Shown here one piece after another: positions 9,039 to 25,319 of a stretch of DNA of 25,321 bases (position 1 is the stretch's first letter; each line of letters begins with the position of its first letter). Position numbers and translations under genes: made by a program. This stretch comes from a virus (lineage: Duplodnaviria > Caudoviricetes), in IMG/VR virus record IMGVR_UViG_3300027785_000131, positions 1 through 25,321 of that record; one strand, 5' to 3'. The notes under the pieces are model-generated. The model ran no database searches. It saw only the letters and a list, made by a program, of their open reading frames with translations, and had not been told where the DNA came from.

Positions 9039-9509
9039 TTATTTTTTGTAATCTAAATTGGATTTTAACAGCCATTGATTTTTTTTATGTACCCTAGCTC
9101 GTTCAACTCCAAGATCTAAGGTTAACTGATCTCCAATGATGTCTGACTCAGTAATCAAATCATTGAAATTACAAGCAAGTGTATCGTGGTTTGCAGCTAT
9201 CTGAAGAATAATTTTGTCTTGGTTAAAACAATCTTCAAACGGTAACTCAGGCATATTTGAATATGTTAAATCCATTACTGTCTTAGGTGTAGCAATACCT
9301 AAAGAACGAATATGCTCAGCAACTGTATCTATGCCTTCTTCCATTTCACGGTATATTTTTTCTGTCAACAGATGGATTTCATAAAATTTACCTCCCATTA
9401 GTCCCCAATGGACAAGTTGGGTTTGGTGGTAAACATTAACGGAATCCCTTAAGCACTGCACTAGAAGGCAGTAGCAGGAAGTTTTTTTATCGGTTAGATC
9501 TTTTACCAT
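9039..9509 (-). CDS. dps: Dps family DNA-protection/ferritin-like protein
   Basis: HW.L.G..F..IH...E..Y......D.VAEHIRSLG and terminal K..WLL signature; 156 aa. Confidence 0.9.
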   Translation of the reverse strand: MVKDLTDKKTSCYCLLVQCLRDSVNVYHQTQLVHWGLMGGKFYEIHLLTEKIYREMEEGIDTVAEHIRSLGIATPKTVMDLTYSNMPELPFEDCFNQDKIILQIAANHDTLACNFNDLITESDIIGDQLTLDLGVERARVHKKNQWLLKSNLDYKK

Positions 9510-9514
9510 TTAAA

Positions 9515-9787
9515 TTACCAAAGGTGTGAGCACGCCCAGTATTTAGGCGTATTTTTATCCATGGGTTTATCACATCCCATTCTAGCCCTGAAATTTTTCC
9601 TCCGATCTTTATCTCCATGTTGGGTGTAGTCCTCATAACCTCTTCGCCCGTAACGAACTATAGCCTCTTCCCCATCATGACAAGACTTAACCACCCATTT
9701 ATGGGTATCGCCAGCTGGGGCACGTTGAGGTTTATTACACTTCATGTGCTCTTTTGATAGACGCTTAGCCTTAGCGTGGTCTGCCAT
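9515..9787 (-). CDS. small basic hypothetical viral protein
   Basis: 90 aa; VRYG..GYEDYTQH.D..RRKNFRAR...PKYW....LW. Confidence 0.7.
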   Translation of the reverse strand: MADHAKAKRLSKEHMKCNKPQRAPAGDTHKWVVKSCHDGEEAIVRYGRRGYEDYTQHGDKDRRKNFRARMGCDKPMDKNTPKYWACSHLW

Positions 9788-9789
9788 AT

Positions 9790-9972
9790 CTACATTCGAC
9801 CAGCCAGATTTGTTGCTACATCTTGAGATACAGCGCCTTTATCCGCAATTTCAAATGGGTCTGGCCTTCTGTAGGAATTTAATTTTTGAACATAGCCAGC
9901 AAGGAACTCAGACGGCACCATTGCTGGTTGTTGTCTATCAGGTTGCAATCCATCCAACATATGCATCCTCAC
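9790..9972 (-). CDS. hypothetical protein
   Basis: 60-aa ORF bridging the HNH gene and the 90-aa gene; start uncertain. Confidence 0.45.
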   Translation of the reverse strand: MRMHMLDGLQPDRQQPAMVPSEFLAGYVQKLNSYRRPDPFEIADKGAVSQDVATNLAGRM

Positions 9973-10348
9973 AAATATACGGAATAGCCTGATAAGCAGC
10001 GGCTAGGTTTAAGGACTTTGGTTTCTGCTCTGTCCATTCTTTAATCTTATCAGCCCTTTCTTTAGTGTATTTAGGATTGCCGTCTGTATACCATAAACCA
10101 AGTTTTTGAGATCCTTTAGCGGAGTTACAAGAACAGCAACAACAGGCAAGATTATTCCTTGAGTTATGTCCACCCTTATGCTTTGGAACAATGTGATCAA
10201 TCGTAGCGGTATTATGACAAAGTTGTTTCTCACAATAAGCGCAGTTCCACTTCCACGCCTCAAAAATACTTTGACGGAATTTTTTTCGAGCGAGTTTTGG
10301 AGTAAGGACAATTAGTTCAGCTAAGAGTTCGTTCTCAGTGTGAAACAC
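9938..10348 (-). CDS. HNH endonuclease (McrA-like)
   Basis: CAYC..TIDHIVPKHKGG....NL...C..CN..KG. Confidence 0.9.
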   Translation of the reverse strand: MFHTENELLAELIVLTPKLARKKFRQSIFEAWKWNCAYCEKQLCHNTATIDHIVPKHKGGHNSRNNLACCCCSCNSAKGSQKLGLWYTDGNPKYTKERADKIKEWTEQKPKSLNLAAAYQAIPYICEDAYVGWIAT

Positions 10349-11985: not shown

Positions 11986-12552
11986 CTAAACTATACCAGA
12001 AGTCGTAGTGCCTGAATTAAATGAAAGATAATCTATGCCACTAGAACCAGTAACGTAATCCGTTGTGCCAGAGCCAATCACTGAATCTGAGGTAACTAGG
12101 TTGTTACTGGCGCCCTGTATGGGCCAAGTGGAATACTCAGCTGAAGTAACAAAATTAGCTAAGTCATCTGTAGTTTTCGTGTTCTTAATTTTTAAAACTT
12201 TACTCCCCGATGTAGTACGTATGTTTTCCCTCCAGGTTTTAACGGTTGGATCTGTTTCTTTTCCGTTATCAACAGAACGCACAATCATCCAATCTGTAGG
12301 ACTAATTAAGGTATTAGCAGTCTGTCTGGTTTGATCCACCCATTGAACTACCAACTGGTCGTGGTCTTTAGGTATCCCTGGAGCCCAATAAAACCGTTGA
12401 TCGTAATAAGGGGGATCAGGGACCTCAGTAATTCCAATTGCTTTGCGATCTTCGGGAGAAGATAATCGAATCCAATTTGAAGGGTACTGGGTTCCATCCG
12501 GTGTTACAAATGGAGAATCTGGAGATATTGGCTTACCGTTTAAAAGAAACAT
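11986..12552 (-). CDS. tail-fibre-associated/assembly-chaperone-like protein
   Basis: QYPSNW..YDQRFYW N-terminus and L..TDW...R....WRENIR...W motif similar to tail fibre assembly proteins. Confidence 0.6.
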   Translation of the reverse strand: MFLLNGKPISPDSPFVTPDGTQYPSNWIRLSSPEDRKAIGITEVPDPPYYDQRFYWAPGIPKDHDQLVVQWVDQTRQTANTLISPTDWMIVRSVDNGKETDPTVKTWRENIRTTSGSKVLKIKNTKTTDDLANFVTSAEYSTWPIQGASNNLVTSDSVIGSGTTDYVTGSSGIDYLSFNSGTTTSGIV

Positions 12553-12645
12553 TATGCTTCAGGTTTTTAATTATTGTAAGCCTTCTCAGCTCTTGCAGCA
12601 CATTAACCGATTTTATGCTAGTCTGGGCCGACAGAGTTCCCGCTA

Positions 12646-13497
12646 ATGACAACACTGCTTGAAGCCTGGGAGCAATTCAAAGCCGAAAGAGCTATTGCCC
12701 TGTGTCCAACTAGTCTGCTTGCGGACTACAGGCAAGTAGGTAATTGGTTAAACAAATGCCCAATTACAGATTTAAATGAGGGAAGAAAAATATTAACATG
12801 GACATTAAGTCAAAAACCTATTAAATCTAGTCGGCGCGTAACAATGTACATAAAATCGTTATATCGTTGGGCATCCAGTGAAGATATAAAATTAATCGAT
12901 AAGAACCCAATTATTAGTTTTAAAATGCCAAAACCACCACAAGAAGATGTTGATATTATTGTAATTCCACGGCAAGAAACAGAACTGGTTTTGAAAGCAC
13001 TTGGATCAAAACAACCACGTAACGGCGCTAACTGGGCATTTTATTCTGAGTTTATGTTGCAAACTGCAATGCGCACTGGAGAAGTACGCGCACTTAAATG
13101 GGAAGATATAAAAGAAAATAAGATCCTTGTGCATAGTAACTATACTCTTACTCATGGGTATAAGAATTCAACAAAAACAAATAGAAAACGGTGGGTTCCT
13201 TTAAATACTAGGTGCCAAGAAATTATGTCTGCTGTATCAAAAGCCAATGAATATATTTTTCCCTGGAATAGGTATGCGTTTCAAAGTTATTTTTATGATC
13301 GAATGAAAGAGTTGCACGCAGATAAACTTATCCAAAATAGGTATAGGCCATATGACTTACGGCATACCGCAATTAGCCGGTGGATTGAGGCCCAGATTCC
13401 AGTAGCACAAGTTGCAAACTGGGCAGGTAATAGTTCGGAAGTTATTTGGAAGCATTATGTAAACGTTACTCAAGAGTATGAGATGCCTGTTCTATAA
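12646..13497 (+). CDS. tyrosine recombinase (phage integrase family), 283 aa
   Basis: TAMRTGEVRALKWEDI, TKT..R.VPL, YDLRHT, VANWAGNS, terminal WKHY. Confidence 0.92.
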   Translation: MTTLLEAWEQFKAERAIALCPTSLLADYRQVGNWLNKCPITDLNEGRKILTWTLSQKPIKSSRRVTMYIKSLYRWASSEDIKLIDKNPIISFKMPKPPQEDVDIIVIPRQETELVLKALGSKQPRNGANWAFYSEFMLQTAMRTGEVRALKWEDIKENKILVHSNYTLTHGYKNSTKTNRKRWVPLNTRCQEIMSAVSKANEYIFPWNRYAFQSYFYDRMKELHADKLIQNRYRPYDLRHTAISRWIEAQIPVAQVANWAGNSSEVIWKHYVNVTQEYEMPVL

Positions 13498-13512
13498 GCT
13501 TACTAAATAAGG

Positions 13513-13770
13513 TTAATCAGCCTTACGACTAAGGCTTATTAATGTTGTTAACACTGCCATCATAGATGTTATGGCTCTGCTATCACTGTCTGCACAAGTT
13601 GGCTGAGCTTCAATAGCTTTACCTTCAGGAGTACCTACATACTTAGCGTACCAAGGCCATGCTGTTGGGAAAACATAAAATCTACAGGCGCCCCACTGAG
13701 CAACAGTAAGCAACATGATTGAAGCTGCTGTAGCAAGTATTGAACGCCAGAGCCAGTTAGGCATGACCAC
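13513..13770 (-). CDS. small putative membrane protein
   Basis: 85 aa with hydrophobic N- and C-terminal segments. Confidence 0.6.
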   Translation of the reverse strand: MVMPNWLWRSILATAASIMLLTVAQWGACRFYVFPTAWPWYAKYVGTPEGKAIEAQPTCADSDSRAITSMMAVLTTLISLSRKAD

Positions 13771-13821
13771 GCAAGCAACTGTTAAATTAATTGTAACAAA
13801 CGTTTTGTTTTTACTTTAAAT

Positions 13822-13852
13822 AATCGTCCTAAGCATGACGTTAAATCGCTTA
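13822..13852 (+). promoter_or_regulatory. candidate H-type RNA pseudoknot upstream of ORF 13903
   Basis: cgtc(13825-28)/gacg(13837-40) stem; loop taagc(13830-34) complementary to gctta(13848-52). Confidence 0.4.
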
Positions 13853-13902
13853 CATCTTACCTTAATCCTATCTATTAACTTTTTTAAATTTTCACAAAGC
13901 AT

Positions 13903-14139
13903 ATGAAAAACTTTTTTCTTTCTTGTTCCTTTGTATTTGGCCTTAGTGCAGCAACCGTTTCATCTTACTGGGGGCTTACTGATATGTATCAACTAAATAA
14001 AGCATATGAAACACAGAATAACCACGCAGAGTTACGCCATAGGATCAATGTTTTTGCGGACGGAACGTGGATTTTACTTGGAATTGTAATTTCAGTTGTT
14101 TCGATTAGTGGGATTCACAAAACCCATGGGGACACTTGA
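13903..14139 (+). CDS. small putative membrane protein
   Basis: 78 aa, two hydrophobic segments. Confidence 0.6.
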   Translation: MKNFFLSCSFVFGLSAATVSSYWGLTDMYQLNKAYETQNNHAELRHRINVFADGTWILLGIVISVVSISGIHKTHGDT

Positions 14140-14886
14140 ACCAAGGGGACGTTGATTTAACCAGCCAATGTTTTCCAAGGCCTTACCTGCCCCGGCAACT
14201 GCGTAAAAACCTTTCTCACTTGGGGAACCTTCAACAACTTTATTAAAATACCAACTGAGAGGGTTGTTTGTATTGTAATTATCTGTTACATTTACAAAAC
14301 CAAAACGATCTGGGGTTGCTGAATATTGGCCGATTGCCATATTTGCGGGTTCATCCCTTAATTTCTCATATCCTTGTCTGTACTTCCCGGTGGTACTTAA
14401 TCCATAATTAATATTATTATTTGATGGTTGCGCGTAACCAAGGGTTTCATACCTATACTTTGCCGCATCTGGATTATCCATCACTCTAAATGGTTTACCC
14501 AATGGACCAGCGTAAGCCTTGACGCCAGTGGCTGCTGCCCAGTTGTTTCTATCTGTTGTTGGAACTGGAATTAATCCTTTATCTAAGACATCGTTTAAAA
14601 GTGCCGGAATGCTTCTACTGGGTTTAACATAATCTGAACCATAGGGAAGCGACCCTTTAAATACTGTCTTATCAACATTTTCATAAGCTTTACCAGCACC
14701 ACTGTAAACATCGGTTCCTAATTTATTTGCGCTATTAACAAATTGTTGTGCTTTTTGTAAAACGCTTCCGAACAGTCCTGCCGTATCCTCGTACTCTAAT
14801 TCAGGCTTATAACCAAACGTACCTTCCCCTGAATCTTTGATCGGGTCAAGATATTCTTTTAAAAAATTGTTAGGATTAACAGCCAA
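14092..14886 (-). CDS. hypothetical protein
   Basis: 264 aa, G/N/Y-rich; no motif recognised. Confidence 0.7.
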   Translation of the reverse strand: MAVNPNNFLKEYLDPIKDSGEGTFGYKPELEYEDTAGLFGSVLQKAQQFVNSANKLGTDVYSGAGKAYENVDKTVFKGSLPYGSDYVKPSRSIPALLNDVLDKGLIPVPTTDRNNWAAATGVKAYAGPLGKPFRVMDNPDAAKYRYETLGYAQPSNNNINYGLSTTGKYRQGYEKLRDEPANMAIGQYSATPDRFGFVNVTDNYNTNNPLSWYFNKVVEGSPSEKGFYAVAGAGKALENIGWLNQRPLGSSVPMGFVNPTNRNN

Positions 14887-14996
14887 CTAAAATAATTCTT
14901 TCTTTATTAATTATAGACTTGTTTTTTTAGTACACTTTGAAAACCCTTAACCACTAAAGGTTTTGGGCTGACCTCACAACTTTTGTTTAAACAGGC

Positions 14997-15002
14997 TATA
15001 CT
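14997..15002 (+). promoter_or_regulatory. possible sigma70-type -10 box for psbA
   Basis: TATACT about 40 nt before the structured leader; no convincing -35. Confidence 0.35.
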
Positions 15003-15039
15003 GAGTAAGTCAGGAAACGAAGATAAAACTTTACAATTC

Positions 15040-15152
15040 CTTACACTTCTGAAACCGAGATCACCAGAAGTAAATCATCTCTAATACCCGCATCCGAGGG
15101 TGATGTGGGAATAACACAACCCGTTCGTCCCCCGAGCTCATACCTACCCTTT
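15040..15152 (+). ncRNA. structured psbA 5' leader, PhotoRC-II-like RNA motif
   Basis: Stem acttctg(15045-51)/cagaagt(15065-71) whose loop gagat can pair with atctc(15077-81); stem cccgcatc(15087-94)/gatgtggg(15102-09) with cgagggt loop; directly 5' of psbA. Confidence 0.65.
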
Positions 15153-15157
15153 TAAAA

Positions 15158-16237
15158 GTGACTGCTTCAATTGCCTTACAAGAACAAACAAACCTATGGC
15201 AACAATTTTGCCGTTGGGTAACCTCAACTGAAAATCGGATATACGTTGGTTGGTTTGGAGTCCTAATGATTCCAACACTTCTTGCTGCCACCGTCTGCTT
15301 CACCATAGCTTTTATTGGTGCCCCACCTGTCGATATAGATGGGATCCGCGAGCCTGTATCTGGCTCTTTACTTTATGGAAACAACATTATTTCAGGAGCC
15401 GTTGTCCCCTCCTCAAATGCAATCGGATTACATTTCTATCCAATTTGGGAAGCTGCTTCCCTTGATGAATGGCTCTACAACGGTGGGCCGTTCCAGCTCG
15501 TCGTATTCCACTTCCTCATTGGCATCTTTGCTTACCTGGGACGCGAATGGGAACTTAGCTATCGATTAGGAATGCGCCCTTGGATCTGCATTGCTTATTC
15601 AGCACCTGTTGCTGCTGCAACTGCTGTATTCCTTGTATATCCTTTCGGTCAAGGGTCCTTCTCTGATGCAATGCCCTTAGGTATCTCTGGCACATTTAAC
15701 TACATGTTGGTGTTCCAGGCTGAGCACAACATCCTTATGCACCCATTCCACATGCTTGGAGTTGCTGGTGTATTCGGTGGATCACTTTTTAGTGCGATGC
15801 ATGGTTCACTTGTAACTTCTTCATTGGTTCGGGAAACCACAGAGAATGAATCGCACAATTATGGCTATAAGTTTGGCCAAGAAGAGGAGACCTACAACAT
15901 TGTGGCCGCCCACGGTTATTTTGGACGCCTTATTTTTCAATATGCATCTTTCAATAACTCACGTTCGCTTCACTTCTTCTTAGCTGCTTGGCCAGTAGTT
16001 GGCATTTGGTTCACTGCTCTGGGTGTTTCTACAATGGCATTTAATCTTAACGGATTTAATTTCAACCAATCAATTGTTGATAGTCAGAATCGTGTCGTCC
16101 CAACTTGGGCAGACATTCTGAACCGTGCTGGACTAGGCTTAGAAGTTATGCATGAAAGAAATGCTCACAACTTTCCATTAGATCTTGCTGCTTCTGAATT
16201 AACTTCTGTTGCGCTTACTGCACCATCTATTGGTTAA
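15158..16237 (+). CDS. psbA: photosystem II reaction centre protein D1
   Basis: Unambiguous D1 ([40 protein letters not shown]); GTG start; 359 aa, uninterrupted. Confidence 0.99.
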
Positions 16238-16257
16238 TAAATAAATTAACAAGTTAT

Positions 16258-16283
16258 AAGACCTTCTTTGGAGGGTCTTTTTT
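16258..16283 (+). terminator. intrinsic terminator after psbA
   Basis: aagaccttc-tttg-gagggtctt hairpin followed by a T run. Confidence 0.8.
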
Positions 16284-16308
16284 ATTGGTAAGATGTCCAT
16301 AAAGATTG

Positions 16309-16938
16309 TTAAACAATTTCCTTTATGTCGTATATATAGTGATTAGATGTTTCAAACAATCTAGTGTTTTCAACTGAGTACACAGTAGTGTCTATTTCAT
16401 ATCCAGGATTTTCAGAAATACGGTTAAAAGTCCATGCACTGTCGTACCATAAAATTCTATTGTTTGGGTAGGCATAATAATTTCCAGTCTCGACTTTAAA
16501 TAAATGAGCGCACTTATGCTCTGGCGTTTCTGAGTAGTTAAAATCCGTCATGCCTTTGTTCTCAAACGCCCAATCAAGTGTAAACATATAATCACCTTGA
16601 ACTTTTATACCATCAGGACGGATAAGATCTGCTTTCAATCCAGCAAGGCGATTTCTTCGTTGAACATCCACGTAAGAAGAAAAGCAATCCCAATACATAA
16701 TTTGATTAAGCGGTTCTATTACAGCGTCTGGTTTCCAGCAAAGTGAATGTAACGGTCTACGGGTCCAATTTACTCCGTTCTCTAAGAAGCATTCGAACAA
16801 AGGAACTCTTTTCTCCATCGATGCAACAGAGTGCACGTCACAGCGCGACACCTCTCCATGTCCTTTTTGATGGTTGTATAGGAATTCATTACGAACATAA
16901 CAAGACCAATCAGGTAGGTTGTGATTTAAATAAGACAT
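16309..16938 (-). CDS. hypothetical phage protein
   Basis: 209 aa, aromatic-rich; YLNHNLP, YMFTLDW, EHKCAH, AYPNNRILW. Confidence 0.75.
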   Translation of the reverse strand: MSYLNHNLPDWSCYVRNEFLYNHQKGHGEVSRCDVHSVASMEKRVPLFECFLENGVNWTRRPLHSLCWKPDAVIEPLNQIMYWDCFSSYVDVQRRNRLAGLKADLIRPDGIKVQGDYMFTLDWAFENKGMTDFNYSETPEHKCAHLFKVETGNYYAYPNNRILWYDSAWTFNRISENPGYEIDTTVYSVENTRLFETSNHYIYDIKEIV

Positions 16939-17032
16939 CTAATGACCAAGCTACTAAAGAAGACTCCTCATTATAACTAGAATCCACAAACCTGTACGTC
17001 CACACGTCATTCTGTTGAATGGTAATTTAGTA

Positions 17033-17359
17033 CTAATTATGTTTGTTTAATTCGTGTTTTATTTTACCGAGCATACGATTTATATTATTTATAGTTATCT
17101 CATTCTCTTCAGAAGATTCAACCATTCCTTTATAATACCCAAGGATATTTACTAACTCTTCAAGATCACGGTGTTGTATTTTTACTTCTAATTTTTCACT
17201 AAGAAACTTTTGATCTTTCTTTCTTGTTTTTGGTTTTTTATTTTGTTCATTACAAGTTAAACAACAAAAGGAATATCCTTGCTTAAATGTTTTCACTAAT
17301 TGAAAATGTTTTTCATTTAGTGGCTGTGTTTTTTTACAGTAGCTGCATACTCTTTTCAT
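17033..17359 (-). CDS. hypothetical Zn-finger-like protein
   Basis: CSYC...CLTC followed by a basic stretch; 108 aa. Confidence 0.6.
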   Translation of the reverse strand: MKRVCSYCKKTQPLNEKHFQLVKTFKQGYSFCCLTCNEQNKKPKTRKKDQKFLSEKLEVKIQHRDLEELVNILGYYKGMVESSEENEITINNINRMLGKIKHELNKHN

Positions 17360-17402
17360 TTAAACACCTTTTGAAAATAGTTTTTTTCCGATATGGGAGC
17401 CG

Positions 17403-17576
17403 TCACTCCTCGTCAAAATCAAAATACTCATAGAGAGAACTTAGCACACATTCTTCAATAGCCTCACATATACGTTCTTCACCAGGATTTTCGTCATGTT
17501 TAAATGCCCTTCTGTACCCACGGAGCACACCCTCGTTAATTGCTTGATCCAGTATGACAAGAAATTTTGGTTTCAT
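17403..17576 (-). CDS. small hypothetical protein (57 aa, not in ORF track)
   Basis: Translated by hand: MKPKFLVILDQAINEGVLRGYRRAFKHDENPGEERICEAIEECVLSSLYEYFDFDEE. Confidence 0.7.
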   Translation of the reverse strand: MKPKFLVILDQAINEGVLRGYRRAFKHDENPGEERICEAIEECVLSSLYEYFDFDEE

Positions 17577-17662
17577 AATTTGGGAACTGGTAAGTGCGAA
17601 GAGTTGACAAGATAGTTATGAAGACGTTCAGCCAAAAGTACGTCGTTTTGTTGTGGTGTCAT
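17573..17662 (-). CDS. possible 29-aa peptide
   Basis: MTPQQNDVLLAERLHNYLVNSSHLPVPKL; starts 4 nt after the previous stop and overlaps the next gene by ATGA. Confidence 0.4.
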   Translation of the reverse strand: MTPQQNDVLLAERLHNYLVNSSHLPVPKL

Positions 17663-17666
17663 GTTA

Positions 17667-17924
17667 CTAAATCAGATCCTTAAAAGAACGCAGTGTTTTC
17701 TGAGCAAGAAGTTTTTTGGCTTCCTGAAAAACCAAATCTAGTTCATCAGCGTCAATGCTTACGTAATGTTCTAGGTCATCGCCTAATTCACAAATTTTTA
17801 CAAAACCCCCTGCGCCTTCGTCGTCAATAGAAATCTGTAAAACTCCACGGCCATAAACAGGATTCGTATCTGTTCGATGGATAGAAACTGTAAGAATAGT
17901 TGCTACTGAAGCAGAGTCAGCCAT
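17667..17924 (-). CDS. hypothetical protein
   Basis: 85-aa ORF in the small-gene run. Confidence 0.65.
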   Translation of the reverse strand: MADSASVATILTVSIHRTDTNPVYGRGVLQISIDDEGAGGFVKICELGDDLEHYVSIDADELDLVFQEAKKLLAQKTLRSFKDLI

Positions 17925-17993
17925 AGGTCGGGATAAGAAGACTTATCTTACCGCACATCCTGAAATTTAAAACGAACTAGAAGTTGACCGGTC

Positions 17994-18008
17994 TAGTGGC
18001 GTTGACTA
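17994..18008 (-). repeat. inverted-repeat site TAGT-CAACGCC-ACTA
   Basis: Read directly; 4-bp arms, 7-nt spacer. Confidence 0.6.
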
Positions 18009-18260
18009 CTTAGCTTTTAGTTCGTCGGCGATGGCAAGGAGTTCTTTTCTAATCTGTTGACACTCAATATCTGCAGCAGCACGAAGAGCGGCAGCAAGTT
18101 TGTTTTCTGCACATATAGGAGCTCCACAAAAAGCATCCCAAATTAATTGGGCGCTAGGTGAAAGTATAGTATTTTCTTTAGGGAAATTTGAATCTCTATC
18201 TTCTTCCAAAAAAGTTCCTTCAAGAGCTTCAAAAAGATCTGTAAATAAAGTTGTTTCCAT
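18006..18260 (-). CDS. small hypothetical cyanophage-type protein
   Basis: 84 aa; LSPSAQ..DA..LAAALRAAAD..IRKELLAIADEL. Its TAG stop forms one arm of the site at 17994..18008. Confidence 0.7.
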   Translation of the reverse strand: METTLFTDLFEALEGTFLEEDRDSNFPKENTILSPSAQLIWDAFCGAPICAENKLAAALRAAADIECQQIRKELLAIADELKAK

Positions 18261-18319
18261 AATGATTAAATCTTAGGAGCGGAGCAAAAGCTGATACTCG
18301 CTGCCAAACCATACTACAT

Positions 18320-18382
18320 GACGCTGGATCGAGGGGAGCTACCGATGGATCGAGGGGAGTCAACGCTGGATCGAGGGGAGTC
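18320..18382. repeat. 3 x 21-bp tandem repeat
   Basis: Invariant tggatcgaggggag at 18325, 18346 and 18367 with 7-nt variable linkers. Confidence 0.95.
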
Positions 18383-18387
18383 CCTGA

Positions 18388-18410
18388 GTAAATCCGTCGA
18401 TTTCCACGGG
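18388..18410. repeat. 23-bp direct repeat, copy 1 (imperfect palindrome)
   Basis: gtaaatccgtcgatttccacggg, 22/23 identical to 18655..18677. Confidence 0.9.
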
Positions 18411-18522
18411 ATTAATGGTGTCGACTTATTAGTTTTGTGGATCACGGATTAGCACCTAGCAATCTTATGGGTCACGAAACGCCAATCCGTTAACGACAAA
18501 ATACGGACGTGCTCATAACTCG

Positions 18523-18537
18523 TAGTGTGCGGGACTA
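18523..18537 (-). repeat. inverted-repeat site TAGT-CCCGCAC-ACTA
   Basis: Arms extend to GTAGT/ACTAC. Confidence 0.6.
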
Positions 18538-18654
18538 CTGATAATGCCTGGTAGCAAAAACATTATGTTTAGTAAGTTGAACACTACGCCAGGTACTGTC
18601 CAACTTGGTGAACACTCGCCACCCTACCATATTTGTTACGTCACGAAAATGGTT

Positions 18655-18677
18655 GTAAACCCGTCGATTTCCACGGG
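18655..18677. repeat. 23-bp direct repeat, copy 2 (imperfect palindrome)
   Basis: gtaaacccgtcgatttccacggg; aacccgt/acgggtt arms. Confidence 0.9.
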
Positions 18678-18701
18678 TTAGAAGACGTGTCCACTTGTGG
18701 G

Positions 18702-21700
18702 CTACCGTGCTCTAGCATAATTAATTGGCGCTTCGGCAAAGGCGGCGTATATGTAATCACTGCTTGAAATATTTCCCCAAGAAGTTGCGGCACGCAGCTT
18801 AAATCCGTTAGACAAAATGTCAAATAATTCGCTATTATCTGCATCTGCCAAATCAGCAAACAATCCTTTATTGCTAACATTGTAGCCATCTCTGGCGGCA
18901 TCAAAAATCGCCCAATCGGATGTTGTATTTGTTCGTTTCAGAAGCACCCACCTCGGCCTAAACCCGGTATACACAAAAACGCCATCGCTCGATCCATTCC
19001 CGGTATACGATCCGAAGCTATTGTACCCGACTACTGGAGCGAAGGCGTATGCCACCCAATCAGGCGTTCCAATACCAGAACCAATGCTGAATACAGTACT
19101 AGTTGGAGACGTGTTGTTCCAATAGGTGTAAGTATTGGTCGCGGCAGTGCTGTTTAATAGCAGAGCTTTTGTATTGCCTATGTCTTTGTGATAAACAAAC
19201 CAATCGTTAGCACCCGGATTGCTTGTGCGAGCCTTCATGATAATCATTGAAGGAGCAACACCTAAGCCGTGACCGACTGTCCCCGTAGAAGCCCCAGTAA
19301 AAGTAGACACGCTAAACCCAGCAGTTGCATTAGCTCTCACCTGACTAGTGATGCTGCCTTGTGTGTTGGATACGGTTGAGGTGCCTGCGTCCCACGCCCA
19401 GCCGACAACAGAATTTCCAGACCCGTTGATTCCGGTATCCGACCCAACAGTAAAGCCAGTAGAAGTAAAAGCAGTTAGCACATCAGAAAAAGGGCCGGAT
19501 TCAGCACTTGTCGAATTACTACTCAATAAATATCCAGCACCTCTTACGATGTCATATAGCTGATGACTATAAGCATTACTGCGTGACTTTAACCAAACAA
19601 AATCTGGCGAAAAGTTTAACCCACTAATAGTTTGTGTTCCACCATTCCCCGTATAAAGCGCAACATCCATCACCGTATTAGACTTCGTGACTAATGGGGT
19701 TGGCAGATTCTGTGTACATAGTGTTTTGAAGCCTGATGGTGCGGTGTAGGCAAATGCGCGTTGGCCGAAGTTTGCGACGACGGCAGGGGATATTCCACTA
19801 ACGCCATCTGCAAAATAAGGTGCTGCACTTGCCATACCTGTGTACGTGTAGCCACCTGCATTGGTAGCCGGATTCTGGGTTCCACTACCTTGCCAAACAT
19901 TATTCACAGCAAACCAAACCTTTTTATTAGTTTGATCAAAAGCAACACCTACGACGTCATTGTTTGAATAGTTTGTTGTGTATGCAATTGTTGAAGAATT
20001 AATGTAAATTCCGTTGCTTGACGAAAAAGAAACAATGACGGCAATATTAACATCGTCTATTATATTATAGGCGTTAAAAGCAGCATTAGCATCGGCAATT
20101 CCAATGTATGCCCCACTAGCTGTTGATGCGGTGGATTCAAAGTAAAACTTGCCTGATTGCACCGCCACGCTTCCCCGTATTGAAACATACCCAGAAGATC
20201 TGCCAGTAGCTTCAAGATTGCCATTGGCAAGAGATGTACTGCCTGATTGATCCAACGGGTTCCAAGTGCAATAATTCCCCCTCACCTCGCCGCCCACGCC
20301 GGTGTCGGTCCCGTAATTAGTGGGGGAGTCTACGAGGGAATCGTTGGCTGCAGCAACAGAACCAATAATTGTGGCAGTAGGAGGGTTAAAGTTACTGGTA
20401 TATTTGGCAACGCCTTTGTAGATGCGGACATCGTTCATAAATCCTTGATAACGACCAAAATATTCTCCTCCATTTCCTTGGGATCTACCAATGTAAAAGG
20501 GGCTCCCTGATGAAACACTACCGGGAGAAGTAGCACTAAAAGCACCAAGAATGCCATTTATATATAAAGAAGTCCCATTCGCATCCTTGCAAAGTGCAAT
20601 ATGACCCCAGGCATTAATGCTAACTGCATTAGTACTGGTAATTGATACAGTAGTTCCACCTCGTACATAAGCTCCGACAGTTCCAGTGCTAGTAACAAGT
20701 AAAGACCAACCGGGCTGATCGTTAAAAGCAGTCCCCCCTTGACTCATTACCATACGGGCACCATTGGCTCCCGCAAATGACGTAAAGTATACCCAACATT
20801 CAACTGTAAAGTCTGTAGTGCCAAACGAAAAATCTGCGTCGTTTGCAATTGTTAAAATACTATTAGTGCCATCAAAACTCCCGCTGCTGCCATAAAACTT
20901 AGATTGGCTAGTTGATGTTGTAGTGCTAGTTACCGTAAATGATTTAGCGCTGCCACTTCCTTTAATTGTTGCACTTTCATCCGTAAATGTTGTTCCTCCA
21001 TTAGTGCCGTTCATCCCCACGGCAAGCACAATAGAAGCACTGTTAGTATCAGTGCGAGTTCCAGTACCCTTTACCGTACCGTAAGTATCTGTGGTGTTGT
21101 AGACAGGTAGAGCACCAGAAGCAGCAGCAACTGATGTTGGTCCTCCGGTATTAATACTTAAGTTATTCGGCGTCCAGTTATTACTCAGCCCGCTATAGTC
21201 CTTCCCTAATGTGCTGGCAGTGTTGCTGGAGTTATCAGCGAACAAAAGATTAAAGCCATTTGTGCCATAACTGCCGGTGTATGTTTTTGGTATCAGTTGC
21301 CCAGTAGTGGCATCGGTTTCGGTGAATGACGATGGGGTAAGTGCTTGGCCGTCGATGAAGTGGATGTTGGCGAGGTAGCCGGAGTAGGTGTTACTTCCTC
21401 CATAATCCCCAATCCTGTGCTGGTCTGTAGTGTTAATGCCAGTATCGTAGTTTAGCGACCCGTATGTTGCTGTTGAAAACGTAGTAACCTGTACGCCGTT
21501 AATGTAAAGCTTTACTCTGTTTGACCCTGTGGTCTGCGTAGTGTCAATAGCGTAAACAATGTGGTACCACGCCGAAACATCTCTAAATACTTGCGTTGTT
21601 ACTACATTTATTACTTCAGAGCTACCGTCGTAACTGCGATATTTCAGCGTATCGTCGGCGTTTATGTTGAATCCGTCAATGGGTAGGTTGGTGTTGTTAT

Positions 21701-21905
21701 TAAAAACGTGCTGAAGCACGCCCAAAGCACTCCGCTTCACCCACCCGCTCCATGTCCAAGTCCGCCTATTTCCCGCTACTGCCGGGGTCCGAGACAAGTA
21801 GGCACTGTCACTACTGTTGAATCTGAGACTACGCTCTATCTGTAATGCGCCACCAGTAGCGTCACCGAATAATAATAAGGGGTTGGTAGAACCTGGAATA
21901 GACAT
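18702..21905 (-). CDS. modular tail fibre/receptor-binding protein (2 x LamG/ConA-like, SPRY-like, 3 C-terminal repeat modules)
   Basis: WTWSGWVKR..WYHIV..LYING; DFTVECWVY..WGHIAL..LYING; LANGNL..GKFYFE..VGVAFD..NFGQ; YTGNG..F.P..V..K repeats. Likely start is ATG at 21905 (1067 aa), just after the upstream stop. Confidence 0.85.
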   Translation of the reverse strand: MSIPGSTNPLLLFGDATGGALQIERSLRFNSSDSAYLSRTPAVAGNRRTWTWSGWVKRSALGVLQHVFNNNTNLPIDGFNINADDTLKYRSYDGSSEVINVVTTQVFRDVSAWYHIVYAIDTTQTTGSNRVKLYINGVQVTTFSTATYGSLNYDTGINTTDQHRIGDYGGSNTYSGYLANIHFIDGQALTPSSFTETDATTGQLIPKTYTGSYGTNGFNLLFADNSSNTASTLGKDYSGLSNNWTPNNLSINTGGPTSVAAASGALPVYNTTDTYGTVKGTGTRTDTNSASIVLAVGMNGTNGGTTFTDESATIKGSGSAKSFTVTSTTTSTSQSKFYGSSGSFDGTNSILTIANDADFSFGTTDFTVECWVYFTSFAGANGARMVMSQGGTAFNDQPGWSLLVTSTGTVGAYVRGGTTVSITSTNAVSINAWGHIALCKDANGTSLYINGILGAFSATSPGSVSSGSPFYIGRSQGNGGEYFGRYQGFMNDVRIYKGVAKYTSNFNPPTATIIGSVAAANDSLVDSPTNYGTDTGVGGEVRGNYCTWNPLDQSGSTSLANGNLEATGRSSGYVSIRGSVAVQSGKFYFESTASTASGAYIGIADANAAFNAYNIIDDVNIAVIVSFSSSNGIYINSSTIAYTTNYSNNDVVGVAFDQTNKKVWFAVNNVWQGSGTQNPATNAGGYTYTGMASAAPYFADGVSGISPAVVANFGQRAFAYTAPSGFKTLCTQNLPTPLVTKSNTVMDVALYTGNGGTQTISGLNFSPDFVWLKSRSNAYSHQLYDIVRGAGYLLSSNSTSAESGPFSDVLTAFTSTGFTVGSDTGINGSGNSVVGWAWDAGTSTVSNTQGSITSQVRANATAGFSVSTFTGASTGTVGHGLGVAPSMIIMKARTSNPGANDWFVYHKDIGNTKALLLNSTAATNTYTYWNNTSPTSTVFSIGSGIGTPDWVAYAFAPVVGYNSFGSYTGNGSSDGVFVYTGFRPRWVLLKRTNTTSDWAIFDAARDGYNVSNKGLFADLADADNSELFDILSNGFKLRAATSWGNISSSDYIYAAFAEAPINYARAR
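19679..19693 (-). repeat. intragenic inverted-repeat site TAGT-CACGAAG-TCTA
   Basis: Arms extend to ATTAG/CTAAT; encodes LVTKSN just after the SPRY-like domain. Confidence 0.6.
20318..20332 (-). repeat. intragenic inverted-repeat site TAGA-CTCCCCC-ACTA
   Basis: Encodes VDSPTN between the second LamG and the SPRY-like domain. Confidence 0.6.
21799..21813 (-). repeat. intragenic inverted-repeat site TAGT-GACAGTG-CCTA
   Basis: Arms extend to GTAG/CTAC; encodes SSDSAY just before the first LamG domain. Confidence 0.55.
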
Positions 21906-21907
21906 AA

Positions 21908-22738
21908 TTATTGGGTAAGGTTGTTCACAAGTTGGCAAACAATGCTTGTACTTGTACGTACAGTATAACCAATTAAGTCAACTGCATTTGCTGTGGTGCT
22001 TAGATTTTTAAATGATTGGCCGCCAGGGAATTTCCAGTGACTGCCATAACTTAAAATCCTGCTTCCCGTTGCATCTTGCAGAATGTAAATCAAACCACTC
22101 TGCCCAACAGTCATGCCGGTTGGGTTGGCAAGTGTTCGAGGTGTTCCGGTCAAAGTGACTGTAAAGTTATTGGCAACTGAAAAATCAGGAGTAATTGTAG
22201 ATCCATCGGTTAAAGTTGCAATGTTCATTGCTCCAGTTCCCTGTACATATATTTTGGTATTACCTACAGATGCTCCTATAGCAAGATTACCGTTGGCGTC
22301 AAAAACAGCACGTTGAATACCACCGGTAGTAACACTGATTTCATTTGAACCGCTGCGATAAAAACCAGTGGTAGGTGCATTATCAAATGTAATACTTGGC
22401 GCACTATTTGAACCATCTGGAAAACTAGCACCCACCGCAACAAAATCAGACCCAGCAAGAACAACTCCAAAGAAAGCCCAACCTCCTGTTGGAGCAGAGG
22501 CAAATACTATGTTCGTACCTACTAAATTAAAACCAGCCGCACCGGTTGGGTCTGGCTTTTGAATTACACCATTAACAGAAATTAAACACTGTTGTGGGTT
22601 AGATGGAAACGGGACTGGTGAAATACCAGAAACTAATAATGGAAAGGATGTTGCAACGCCGTTAAAACTGGATCCAATATTATCAACACGTTGGTAACTT
22701 ATGCCAGGTGTTAATGTTGTGTTTCCTATATAACGCAT
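21908..22738 (-). CDS. tail/virion protein
   Basis: FNG....F.L, LISVNGVIQKP, DGS.SAPSITF...TTG.Y motifs; C-terminal domain shared with 23910..25319. Confidence 0.75.
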   Translation of the reverse strand: MRYIGNTTLTPGISYQRVDNIGSSFNGVATSFPLLVSGISPVPFPSNPQQCLISVNGVIQKPDPTGAAGFNLVGTNIVFASAPTGGWAFFGVVLAGSDFVAVGASFPDGSNSAPSITFDNAPTTGFYRSGSNEISVTTGGIQRAVFDANGNLAIGASVGNTKIYVQGTGAMNIATLTDGSTITPDFSVANNFTVTLTGTPRTLANPTGMTVGQSGLIYILQDATGSRILSYGSHWKFPGGQSFKNLSTTANAVDLIGYTVRTSTSIVCQLVNNLTQ

Positions 22739-22746
22739 GTCAGTTC

Positions 22747-23154
22747 CTATTTATTTTTTATTGAGTTCGGGCCAGTAGTAGCTGGTGCTATTGGCCACCG
22801 GACTTGATTTAATTTTACACCGAAAAACGTTTGTGGTAAGTCCCTCAACTGCTGTCTATAAGATACCCAAGCAGATTGATCTACAGTGCAACCAGAAGAA
22901 ACAGTCCAGTCTGTTGATTTAAGAAGGTAATTTCTTTTTAGAATAATGTTATTCCAAGAAGAATTATCTAGTTCAAGAACACGTTCTTCAAAGATTCTTG
23001 ATTCTAAATCTTGAAGGCGTTTTTCTATTTCAGTAATTTTTAAATTATATGTTTCTTCTTTTAGTTCTCCTTTGTTTTTAATATCTTCTTTTAAAGAACT
23101 CACCTGTCTGTACAGGATGTCAATATCACCAATTGTTGTTAGTCCTGTTGTCAT
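22747..23154 (-). CDS. tail fibre assembly chaperone-like protein
   Basis: RNYLLKSTDWT..W.SYRQQLRDLPQ..V.WP..P. Confidence 0.8.
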   Translation of the reverse strand: MTTGLTTIGDIDILYRQVSSLKEDIKNKGELKEETYNLKITEIEKRLQDLESRIFEERVLELDNSSWNNIILKRNYLLKSTDWTVSSGCTVDQSAWVSYRQQLRDLPQTFFGVKLNQVRWPIAPATTGPNSIKNK

Positions 23155-23498
23155 TATGTTTGCTCCAAATAACTAATCATTATGTCAAGTGCTGAGCCAG
23201 TATCTGAGCTAGCACGGATAACATCTGACGGTTCTATAATCAGTTTATTACCTTGTACAAGTTCTAACGAAGAACCTGCTGGTACTGGCCCATTCTTTAT
23301 AAGAAATACTGAATCGCCAACTGCAGAAGAAATATATACATTTGCATTCGCACTGCTACCAGTTTTGTTTGAAACCAAAACACTAAGAATAACAAGAGTA
23401 GCAGTGCCGCCAACTGTAAGTATATTAGTAGTCGCGCTTGATGTTACATCAGCTGTCAAAAGGCTTGACTTTGTATCTTTTTTAAAAGTGTTTGCCAT
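23154..23498 (-). CDS. virion structural-like hypothetical protein
   Basis: MANTFK start, beta-rich, VPAGSSLE...K......D, SYLE end. Confidence 0.7.
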   Translation of the reverse strand: MANTFKKDTKSSLLTADVTSSATTNILTVGGTATLVILSVLVSNKTGSSANANVYISSAVGDSVFLIKNGPVPAGSSLELVQGNKLIIEPSDVIRASSDTGSALDIMISYLEQT

Positions 23499-23903
23499 TT
23501 AACTTAGAGCAATAATTAAGGTTAAAGTGTCAGATGAAGTAGTGGTGCCAGCGACACTAAGACTTCCGTTAACGGTGAGGTTTCCAGAGAAGGTTGCACT
23601 CCCTGAAGAATCTATTGTAAGCCTTGCAACACCGTTCGTCACCAAAGATAATTGAGCCTGTACTGGACTAATAATACCAGTATTAACGCTGTTAGCAAAT
23701 TTAAGAGCGCAACTGTTTAGCGCACCGGGAGAAAGTAAACAGTTAGTACCATCTTCTCGTAAAAGTGGGAACCCACCAAGTGTTATAGCATCGTGAACTA
23801 TGGCTGTAAGTTTCTGTGTATCAACAGTGACTTCCCCCAGCGCACCCGCAAAAGCGATTGTTTGAGCGGTCGTACCACGCCTTAGTTGTACTTGAGTTGC
23901 CAT
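23499..23903 (-). CDS. short tail protein with Mtd N-terminal-like domain
   Basis: QVQLRRGTT....F.GA.GEVTVDT.....VHD..T.GG.PL. Confidence 0.75.
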   Translation of the reverse strand: MATQVQLRRGTTAQTIAFAGALGEVTVDTQKLTAIVHDAITLGGFPLLREDGTNCLLSPGALNSCALKFANSVNTGIISPVQAQLSLVTNGVARLTIDSSGSATFSGNLTVNGSLSVAGTTTSSDTLTLIIALS

Positions 23904-23909
23904 AATCTA

Positions 23910-25319
23910 TTATGTCACGTTTGTTATCAGTCTAGCTGTTATTCTTGTAGTTGATTCAGAATAATAAACCAGTACGTCAACGGCATTTGCAGTTGTTGTA
24001 GCAGTTGGTGTGCCACCTGAAAATTTATAAAATGAACCGTATGCAATTGTCCTCGAACCGGTCGCATCTTGAGTAATAACTATTGCGCCACTTTGTCCGG
24101 CAGTTAAGTTCGATGGGTTTTGGATTGTAGTGCTTGCACCTAAAGTTAAAGAAAAGTTATTAGAAACAGCAAAGTCTGGAGTAATAGAAGAACTACTTGT
24201 GAGGACACTAATTGTTCCACGTTGCGCCGCACTGTAACTTTGCGCTAGGCCTAGAACAGCAATAGTGCTTGTAACAGCTGGAAGAGTTAAGGTTCCAGAT
24301 GCTGCTGCTGTGGCAACAACTGTAGTGGTTCCTGATGACGACCCAGTAAATATATGCCCGCCAGTACCTGCGGTTAATGTTGTTGCGGTTAAAGCAGTTA
24401 AGCCAGTGATGCTAGTTGCAGTGCTTCCAAGAGCAATTGATGTAGAACCAACGGTGAGGCTACTATTAGCAAGCTGTGCGTTCGGAATAGCACTTGTACT
24501 AAATTCTCCAGTAGTACTGTTGTATGTTAACCCTGACCCGCCAGCTACACTTAATGCACTTCTAATGTTTAAGTCTGTAACTACTGAATACGTAACAGCA
24601 CCAGTGGTACTGTTATAACTTATTGACCCATAACCGCTACCACTGTTAGTGGCACTTAAAGCACCTCTAATGTTTAAGTCTGTAACCACTGAATACGTAA
24701 GTACTCCGGTCGTGTTGTTATAGCTTATGGACCCATATCCAGTTCCTGAGTTTGTTACACTTATTGATGATAACAACGCAAGCGTACCTGTTGCATCTGG
24801 GAGAGTAATGACACGTGCGCCGGTCGGCTGTGCAGGTACTAAGTCAATATATTGGCCAACTGTAATTACGGCACCCGTAAAAAGAATGCCCGCATAATCA
24901 GCTATTATGTGGGAAGCACTGGTAGATGGGTGTTTTAGCTCAAGTCCGGTGGTCTTTAAGTTAGTAATATCAAAACTTGTTACTGTAGAACCTAAAGCAG
25001 CAGGTGTAGCTCCAAAAGTAATACTGCTGTTGGCTAATTGAGAGTTTGGAATAGCACTTGTACTAAATGCTCCAGTAGTACTGTTGTATGTTAACCCTGA
25101 ACCACCAGTTACACTTAAGGCACCTCTAATGTTTAAGTCTGTAACCACTGAGTACGTAAGTACTCCAGTACTGTTGTTATAGCTTATAGACCCATATCCA
25201 GTTCCTGTGTTCCCAGCAGAAATTGATAACCGTGCCCTAGTATCTGTGTAATAAAGATTCGTACCTTCTGTTAAATTTGTTGTTGTATTTCCAGCAAAAT
25301 CTAGTCCATCCGTCGGGGT
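23910..25319 (-). CDS. repetitive tail fibre protein (5' end outside the window)
   Basis: Frame stays open past the annotated GTG to the window edge (..TTNLTEGTNLYYTDTRA..); SYNxTTG repeats. Confidence 0.8.
   Translation of the reverse strand, partial: TPTDGLDFAGNTTTNLTEGTNLYYTDTRARLSISAGNTGTGYGSISYNNSTGVLTYSVVTDLNIRGALSVTGGSGLTYNSTTGAFSTSAIPNSQLANSSITFGATPAALGSTVTSFDITNLKTTGLELKHPSTSASHIIADYAGILFTGAVITVGQYIDLVPAQPTGARVITLPDATGTLALLSSISVTNSGTGYGSISYNNTTGVLTYSVVTDLNIRGALSATNSGSGYGSISYNSTTGAVTYSVVTDLNIRSALSVAGGSGLTYNSTTGEFSTSAIPNAQLANSSLTVGSTSIALGSTATSITGLTALTATTLTAGTGGHIFTGSSSGTTTVVATAAASGTLTLPAVTSTIAVLGLAQSYSAAQRGTISVLTSSSSITPDFAVSNNFSLTLGASTTIQNPSNLTAGQSGAIVITQDATGSRTIAYGSFYKFSGGTPTATTTANAVDVLVYYSESTTRITARLITNVT
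24484..25205. repeat. intragenic near-identical DNA repeats in the tail fibre gene
   Basis: About 24484-24595 closely matches about 25048-25159; tctaatgtttaagtctgtaac occurs three times (near 24561, 24666, 25125). Confidence 0.85.

Follow-up and report, generated by a model that had tools for sequence, protein, structure and literature searches.

Recombinases that vary a phage fibre or an adhesin are known from the shufflons and fibre invertases (Rci, Gin, Cin and Min), which in nature flip silent segments within one genome and whose sites share a common core. Matching overlaps are needed in lambda and Cre recombination, Tn916-type integrases form heteroduplex overlaps, and in engineered heterospecific lox and FRT sites differing spacers give addressed cassette exchange. 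To our knowledge, such addressed-exchange logic is otherwise known only from engineering and from the pdif sites of Acinetobacter. As described in the passages on pdif, a mobile element bears numerous sites whose spacers differ, modules are replaced one at a time between spacer-matched sites by way of a cointegrate and its resolution, and the element need not encode the enzyme (PMC13141974). Here we analyse a stretch of 25,321 nucleotides from a virus of the Caudoviricetes (IMG/VR record IMGVR_UViG_3300027785_000131; hereafter the window), which carries psbA, an endolysin and tail genes and is present in freshwater metagenome runs. A first-pass annotation had proposed that recombinase-core-like sites, each with inverted arms around its own 7-nt spacer, lie at the domain junctions of a putative tail fibre gene (18702..21905, minus strand) and form a module-swapping system. 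The system is wider than first proposed and includes an ordered array of small genes behind the fibre as well as a second fibre family.

The sites are a real and widespread DNA signal that, as far as sequence comparison can tell, has the marks of a code for site-specific exchange, whose enzyme we infer. Comparison among relatives establishes, at the level of sequence, one spacer family per position, a fixed order of sites, variable contents of the slots between them and an enrichment of junctions in or beside the sites. We regard site-specific action of some kind at the sites as likely, and lean cautiously towards a spacer-addressed exchange of modules by a tyrosine recombinase, probably the product of the gene at 12646-13497.

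The fibre gene (1067 aa from the ATG at 21905, defined from Pfam, PHROGs, repeat analysis and a structural model) encodes an N-terminal anchor, LamG-1, LamG-2, SPRY and DUF7483, the last consisting of three repeats of ~110 aa; the label ‘tail fibre’ is putative, being based on PHROGs and on annotations in relatives. All eight sequences of the first-pass annotation are present where it placed them; in the light of relatives five are kept as written, two are re-registered and one is rejected. All sites lie on the minus strand. S1 (TAGT-GACAGTG-CCTA, 21799..21813) covers aa 31-36 ahead of LamG-1, and identity of the window to locus L005 falls at 21792, near this site. S2 (TAGG-GAAGGAC-TATA, 21194..21208; aa 233-237) has a damaged right arm in the window which in relatives is frequently ACTA, S3 (TAGA-CTCCCCC-ACTA, 20318..20332; aa 525-529) lies in the linker preceding SPRY, and S4 (TAGT-CACGAAG-TCTA, 19679..19693; aa 738-742) in the linker between SPRY and DUF7483. 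At the joint of DUF7483 repeats 1 and 2, S4b (AAGG-CAGCATC-ACTA, 19346..19360; aa 849-853), whose third positions are frozen at 0.92-1.0, replaces a site with a 9-nt spacer claimed at 19331-19347, for which a matrix trained on intergenic sites gives a score below 0 and of which the left arm and spacer vary in relatives. S5 (TAGT-CGGGTAC-AATA, 19019..19033; aa 958-962), at the joint of repeats 2 and 3, also has a damaged right arm, frequently TCTA in relatives, so that the arms of both S2 and S5 are frequently better in relatives than in the window. The site claimed just past the fibre stop is real, but its register of 18679-18693 is corrected to 18682-18696 (S6, AAGT-GGACACG-TCTT, non-coding), and the weak site at 21857-21871 varies freely among relatives and is abandoned. 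That the sites bracket recognizable modules is upheld by the Pfam domains, the DUF7483 repeats and the model alike: DUF7483 is divided at S4, S4b, S5 and the stop into stretches of 111, 109 and 110 aa that resemble one another weakly. The C-terminal half is modelled at pLDDT 83 with SPRY folds as Foldseek matches, and in this model S3 and S4 would fall in low-confidence linkers and S4b and S5 in turns within the confident fold.

Behind the fibre, this analysis adds an array of three sites, namely site a (TAGT-CCCGCAC-ACTA, 18523..18537), site b (TAGT-CAACGCC-ACTA, 17994..18008) and site c (TAGA-CCGGTCA-ACTT, 17981..17995), which overlaps b by 2 nt so that slot b-c is empty. Slot a-b is filled by an open reading frame (ORF) of 84 aa (18006..18260, minus strand), the TAG stop of which is the left arm of site b. 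Beyond c follows an optional 380-nt block (17601..17981, minus strand) with an 85-aa ORF (17667-17924); site c forms one boundary of the block and a relic half-site (17601-17615) the other. Elsewhere arrays are filled by paralogous small ORFs (L279:3970-5140, L010:11023-11651 and L014:10859-11927; phrog_32006 and an unnamed family), which begin just past a right arm or end in a left arm. Slot a-b of the window holds an 18-nt word three times at 21-nt spacing (18321-18380), with similar repeats ahead of site a in L111, and a 23-nt direct repeat (18388-18410 and 18655-18677) forms a small hairpin, similar hairpins following sites in L214, L005, L205 and L230. A hairpin reading of the sites themselves was discarded, since arm positions 4 and 12 are frequently non-complementary in the site listing (judged by eye). 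Strict TAG-N9-CTA matches also occur in upstream tail genes at 22776, 23786 and 24128 and are not claimed as sites; at 24128 the arms are kept and the spacer is changed in L005.

The first-pass count of the strict motif is reproduced, with five matches in 17994-21813 and none in 12550-17990; five further matches lie elsewhere in the window. The codon-shuffled control proposed for the fibre gene alone gives no enrichment (3 strict matches against 1.27±1.06, p=0.12), the relaxed motif shows no excess there either (11 against 7.7 in synonymous shuffles, p=0.14), and window-wide a spacing of N11 is as common as N9. As the fibre gene alone holds no excess, relatives were collected, giving 80 loci via the fibre and 164 loci via the recombinase, the latter in 72 lineages at <90% identity; the window itself (L198) was excluded. 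When the spacing is varied, TAG-Nn-CTA peaks only at n=9 in the 6 kb that follow the recombinase, with 142 matches against 12-53 at 20 other lengths and 89 distinct words against at most 49, a peak at N12 being set aside as a register shift of TAG-TAG; upstream of the recombinase the N9 excess is smaller (77 against 20-60). In the complete genome G001, 13 of 19 matches fall within 5.8 of 83.5 kb. When the site matrix was trained on 35 intergenic sites only, its top five in the window were b, S4, S3, a and S1, three of them coding and outside the training set. Among 52 lineages outside training, mostly with the other fibre family upstream, TAG-N9-CTA ranks first of 640 spaced palindromes (70 against 21.3), and on the fibre side the site density per 10 kb falls from 11.3 in the 2.5 kb adjoining the recombinase to 2.1 in the following 2.5 kb, other stretches having 0.4-1.1.

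The expectation that synonymous positions within sites would be frozen is borne out in fibres linked to a recombinase. In 60 of these (<85% identity), which offer 343 four-fold positions, site positions -4 to +14 hold 14 of the 15 that are most frozen. Median synonymous conservation falls from 0.87 in sites to 0.60 in flanks (p=2e-8 for site against flank) and to 0.47 elsewhere, and conservation drops sharply outside -5..+15. For 75 fibres from a protein search the corresponding values are 0.47, 0.50 and 0.45. Of 39 VGIGT-type motifs in the loci that surround the recombinase, 31 bear the arms, and the same junction peptides in other phages leave their codons free. Each site position holds its own 7-nt spacer family, as had been suspected from the window (the family is kept in 61 of 66 cases at S5 and 26 of 43 at S1). 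Spacers in the window differ by 3-7 nt in direct and at least 2 nt in inverted comparison, and the avoidance of equal spacers within one molecule recurs in the arrays (3 equal types against 20 in shuffles). Judged by these patterns, the arms and much of the spacer are evidently constrained as DNA. A rare pair of near-equal spacers at L279:3950 and 4264 forms a direct repeat around one ORF, with one copy arm-damaged, as if re-excision were blocked.

Behind the fibre, sites contain 25 of 156 clustered BLASTN breakpoints, where shifted positions give an expectation of 5.0, and six left-shared ends halt exactly at the right edge of a spacer. With gene ends controlled for as a confounder, a breakpoint is found at 17 of 24 stops bearing a site against 35 of 116 site-less stops (p=3e-4). 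The exact 15-mer of site a recurs in 33 viral stretches, and in those associated with a fibre it is the point at which left flanks are re-paired with right ones. S6, found by its arms alone, shows a single spacer family at 45 of 53 junctions (83 examined), with 14 left and 33 right variants; four loci (L256, L361, L261 and L293) together pair each of two left alleles with both of two right ones, and in the four-gamete sets at S6 the nearest differences border the 7-nt spacer, the crossover being confined to 7-13 nt. Such sets number nine at the S6 spacer and four, all weak, at S2. When 10,852 nine-letter cores were scanned without bias, 11 had four-gamete sets, 5 of those in sites. Array site order is the same in 195 of 199 pairs, a test in which, as in that of equal types, families were defined by recurrence, some contigs entered twice and descent alone would keep the order too, while slot lengths vary among relatives from 25 to 688 nt (a-b) and from 13 to 1221 nt (b-c). 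Within the population of the window's own phage, the 380-nt block ending at site c is absent from L002 and from contigs of runs X4, X5 and X6, where seven letters fit both sides and the short side is just 20-26 nt. In one-sided switches the spacer stays within one mismatch in 185 of 340 and 241 of 333 pairs. Most switches keep the spacer, but the orthogonality ascribed to unique spacers is incomplete because some junctions join different ones. At the chaperone start the S6 spacer seemed to recur in inverted form, but this proved not to be general and was dropped.

Within the fibre, long near-identical tracts are taken as marks of recent exchange, and 19 of 36 cases end at -10 to +25 from a site against 8.8%. 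Of the left tract ends, twelve fall at -9 to +6, including six at S6, and tracts start at offset 0 of S4 in two pairs (L014/L019 and L158/L266). Sharp BLASTN ends within 30 nt of fibre sites number 26 against 10.8 expected. Identity switches at or around sites, as proposed, in the array, at S6 and in long fibre tracts, but a confinement of fibre mosaicism to them is not supported. Contig ends at 21813 and 20317 (four runs) were rejected as site evidence, being due to 31-letter words and variation 30 nt away; none of the joints listed from run contigs lies on a site, and the 13823/14960 deletion is site-less.

The candidate enzyme is an arm-less recombinase of 283 aa (12646..13497, plus strand), convergent on the fibre gene and 5.2 kb away. 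Its sequence and model assign it to the tyrosine recombinase superfamily: PF00589 matches at E=5e-16, R142, K177, R239 and Y271 are invariant among 11 sequences, and the two histidine positions are Y236 and N262, as in most aligned related integrases. The model (pLDDT 58) has a fold that matches tyrosine recombinases throughout, the top match, a weak one, being the Tn1549 integrase; a sequence search found no match in the PDB. The family forms a tight clade without an arm-binding domain, the nearest outgroups being mostly 350-400 aa with the arm domain PF12167 in 4 of 9 scanned, and its dN/dS is 0.03 (324 pairs). Among GTDB representatives (one genome per species, close-match seeds only) there were three matches, none cyanobacterial. 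Among lineages with both flanks, 18 of 18 and 22 of 24 have sites within 3 kb of the recombinase, and these follow the fibre to whichever side of the gene it is on. A site at the recombinase stop is found in 34 of 69 lineages against 0.5% of background windows, the stop codon itself often being an arm, and this stop is fused to at least seven spacers. No divergent recombinase clade with a different motif was found, a member at 45% identity also having a TAG-type site. Large serine-recombinase-like genes in or beside the recombinase slot (L279:6717-8096, L449:6172-7467 and L452:6183-7478) could be true lysogeny integrases.

In the mechanism that we favour, the symmetric arms would bind a recombinase dimer, which would cleave at the spacer edges and exchange strands over the 7-nt overlap. 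A crossover at one matching address would join two genomes into a cointegrate and a second, at the next address, would resolve it, with the outcome that a fibre module or a small gene between two sites is traded for the matching slot of another phage. Self-deletion would be prevented because the spacers within a genome differ, mismatched events would occur occasionally, and ordinary homologous recombination would operate in parallel in the longer conserved blocks. As most site-bearing phages carry no recombinase gene, the enzyme would for most of them have to act in trans during co-infection, coming from the co-infecting phage or from the host. More tentatively, and at a little under even likelihood in our estimate, the whole may be a phage-encoded cassette-exchange network in which unrelated cyanophages share in-frame 7-base addresses and a minority carry the arm-less integrase as a public good. 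Such a domesticated integrase would serve the co-infecting community, with receptor-binding modules being swapped and addresses lying also between accessory genes.

Several observations on the gene itself weigh against exchange by the 12646-13497 product. A perfect S5 occurs in 64 stretches, and of the 50 records searched 4 carry the recombinase; among near-complete records with a perfect S5 the figure is 1 of 9, and in seven complete site-bearing phages neither PF00589 nor PF00239 was found (a 0/80 result for the fibre-search records is weak, most being fragments and many site-less). Genome G011 has sites and an array but a serine recombinase in the recombinase slot, in L449, L452 and L494 the recombinase lies apart from the fibre, and residence in the fibre island may be all that links gene and sites. 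In recombinase-less phages, too, the strict sites are concentrated in the fibre (G113 7/7, G129 3/3 and G090 8/9). The predicted co-occurrence with the recombinase clade stands in one direction, with arrays beside the recombinase in 40 of 42 lineages, but a dependence of sites on a recombinase in the same genome is unsupported because most site-bearing phages lack the gene. The seven complete phages without a recombinase would suit a host tyrosine recombinase acting at the same addressed sites, as for pdif, with the phage gene a dispensable passenger or backup, which we hold to be unlikely. It would also fit with the fact that site-bearing phages of differing kinds (35-83 kb) share only endolysin, fibre and chaperone (11/13) families, no recombinase or nuclease common to 13 site-bearing genomes having been found. 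XerCD homologues occur in some cyanobacteria (PMC3025954), and no dif is predicted for cyanobacteria in the passages cited (PMC3025954, PMC6416890). For a passenger, however, a place beside arrays in 40 of 42 lineages, loss of the arm domain and a dN/dS kept at 0.03 would be unexpected, and intact arms are fewer without a local gene (S1 8/31 against 14/17, S3 20/30 against 23/25), a comparison confounded by phage type.

Other points weigh against the sites as the places of exchange. Sharp BLASTN ends inside the fibre fall in sites in 2 of 65 cases against 2.4 expected, lying near but not in them because conserved blocks of 120-230 nt bracket the coding sites. Four-gamete sets occur at only 2 of 24 spacer types and at none of the 22 others, and in the unbiased scan 2 of 7 distinct places are inside sites, several others being close. 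In fibre pairs not classed as site-bearing, 5 of 16 ends lie near the same joints against 7%, several sites in the window have damaged arms, and the p-values are optimistic because the genomes are related. Recurrent block edges at 21381 and 19772 are site-less and the L028/L030 tract ends far from sites, and therefore homologous recombination acts too. One could go further and see in the sites only the cores of conserved boxes for homologous or single-strand-annealing swapping of the T-even gp37/gp38 type, the palindrome being a by-product or the site of another protein. This we judge rather improbable, even though the flanks are partly homogenized (0.60 against 0.47) and the recombinase is optional, since boxes of this kind do not predict one arm-spacer-arm geometry at more than 20 unrelated positions, the sharp fall of conservation just outside the site, a 7-nt core outside coding DNA whose flanks are freely re-paired, or breakpoints that peak at the edge of the spacer. 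Some junctions directly past the left arm join unlike spacers (L227/L231 and L010/L134), which, together with the many spacers fused to the recombinase stop and the weak resemblance to the Tn1549 integrase, would suit an integron- or Tn916-like cassette system with insertion and excision irrespective of the spacer. Such a system is very unlikely, as order is fixed and most one-sided switches retain the spacer, and as essential fibre domains would be lost if direct sites recombined freely. That the motif arises by chance from conserved junction peptides, as the unenriched fibre gene taken alone might suggest, is scarcely credible given the free codons of the same peptides in other phages, the existence of non-coding sites and the recurrence of the signal in the independent set of 52 lineages.

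Among the neighbouring genes, a member of a fibre-assembly chaperone family (11986..12552, minus strand; phrog_4912) directly follows S6 in many insert-free phages. HNH-endonuclease-like ORFs were noted by eye at fibre gene ends (L015:14142-14654, L192:8494-8973 and L494:13353-13853). Upstream, ahead of the fibre cluster, lies a gene with an Mtd_N domain (23499-23903); the scanned proteins include no reverse transcriptase. Ahead of psbA there is a PhotoRC-II RNA (RF01717) at 15031-15122, and the optional 1.1-kb block at 13823-14960, with two ORFs, is missing or replaced in L002, L006, L007 and contigs of X1 and X4; it does not end at sites.

If spacer-addressed exchange is correct, it would provide a specific mechanism for the modular evolution of phage host-recognition proteins, which is usually ascribed to unspecific recombination, and would reassign an ‘integrase’ that is now taken to indicate lysogeny in Synechococcus phages of fresh water. 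The cultured phage S-LBS1 carries both enzyme and sites and makes the proposal directly testable, while a small recombinase with more than 20 natural, short and mutually distinct spacers would be a potential tool for cassette exchange.

In S-LBS1 the integrase A12 (MG271909) belongs to the same family (67% identical) and lies directly behind the tail-fibre gene, with four of six strict sites at 9067-10074, just ahead of the A12 gene. The S-LBS1 paper, in its passages on A12, regards it as a lysogeny integrase, proposes other att sites, reports no integration by induction and does not mention these sites (PMC6157547); literature searches, with subscription journals outside their coverage, found no description of them. 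The N-terminal arm-binding domain of lambda-type integrases is missing from the 283-aa recombinase. As the first-pass annotation held, the system is distinct, in the features compared, from shufflons and invertases, since the spacers differ and no duplicate fibre tips occur among the repeats in 17500-23200, and from diversity-generating retroelements, with no reverse transcriptase among 15 scanned proteins of the window, itself a genome fragment, and no long repeat in 17500-23200. Nor is the reshuffled cassette order of integrons found, 195 of 199 site pairs having one order. As in the T-even gp37/gp38 system, variable host-recognition segments lie between conserved blocks; the blocks described there are conserved protein motifs, and the cited passages name no palindromic DNA site, spacer code or recombinase (PMC3157838). 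Here conserved blocks are present and some ends lie off sites, yet ends cluster at sites. The PeSL elements of T4-type phages likewise part small optional genes and mediate shuffling, but in the sections cited they are similar promoter-plus-stem-loop repeats that recombine mutually and form mini-circles (PMC2839356), whereas here the cores differ between sites and coding DNA is included. With sigma-70 consensus only, 17400-19100 holds three promoter-like sequences (shuffle mean 3.0) and one terminator-like sequence (1.4), none on a site. The pdif sites are alike in their many differing spacers, in spacer-matched replacement, for which the evidence here is comparative only, and in an enzyme that need not be encoded by the element. 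As far as the passages on pdif go, those sites have distinct 11-bp XerC and XerD arms, a 6-bp spacer and alternating orientation, are intergenic and use a host enzyme (PMC13141974), whereas here near-symmetric TAG/CTA arms enclose a 7-nt spacer, and the sites keep a fixed order and lie also in frame within a virion gene.

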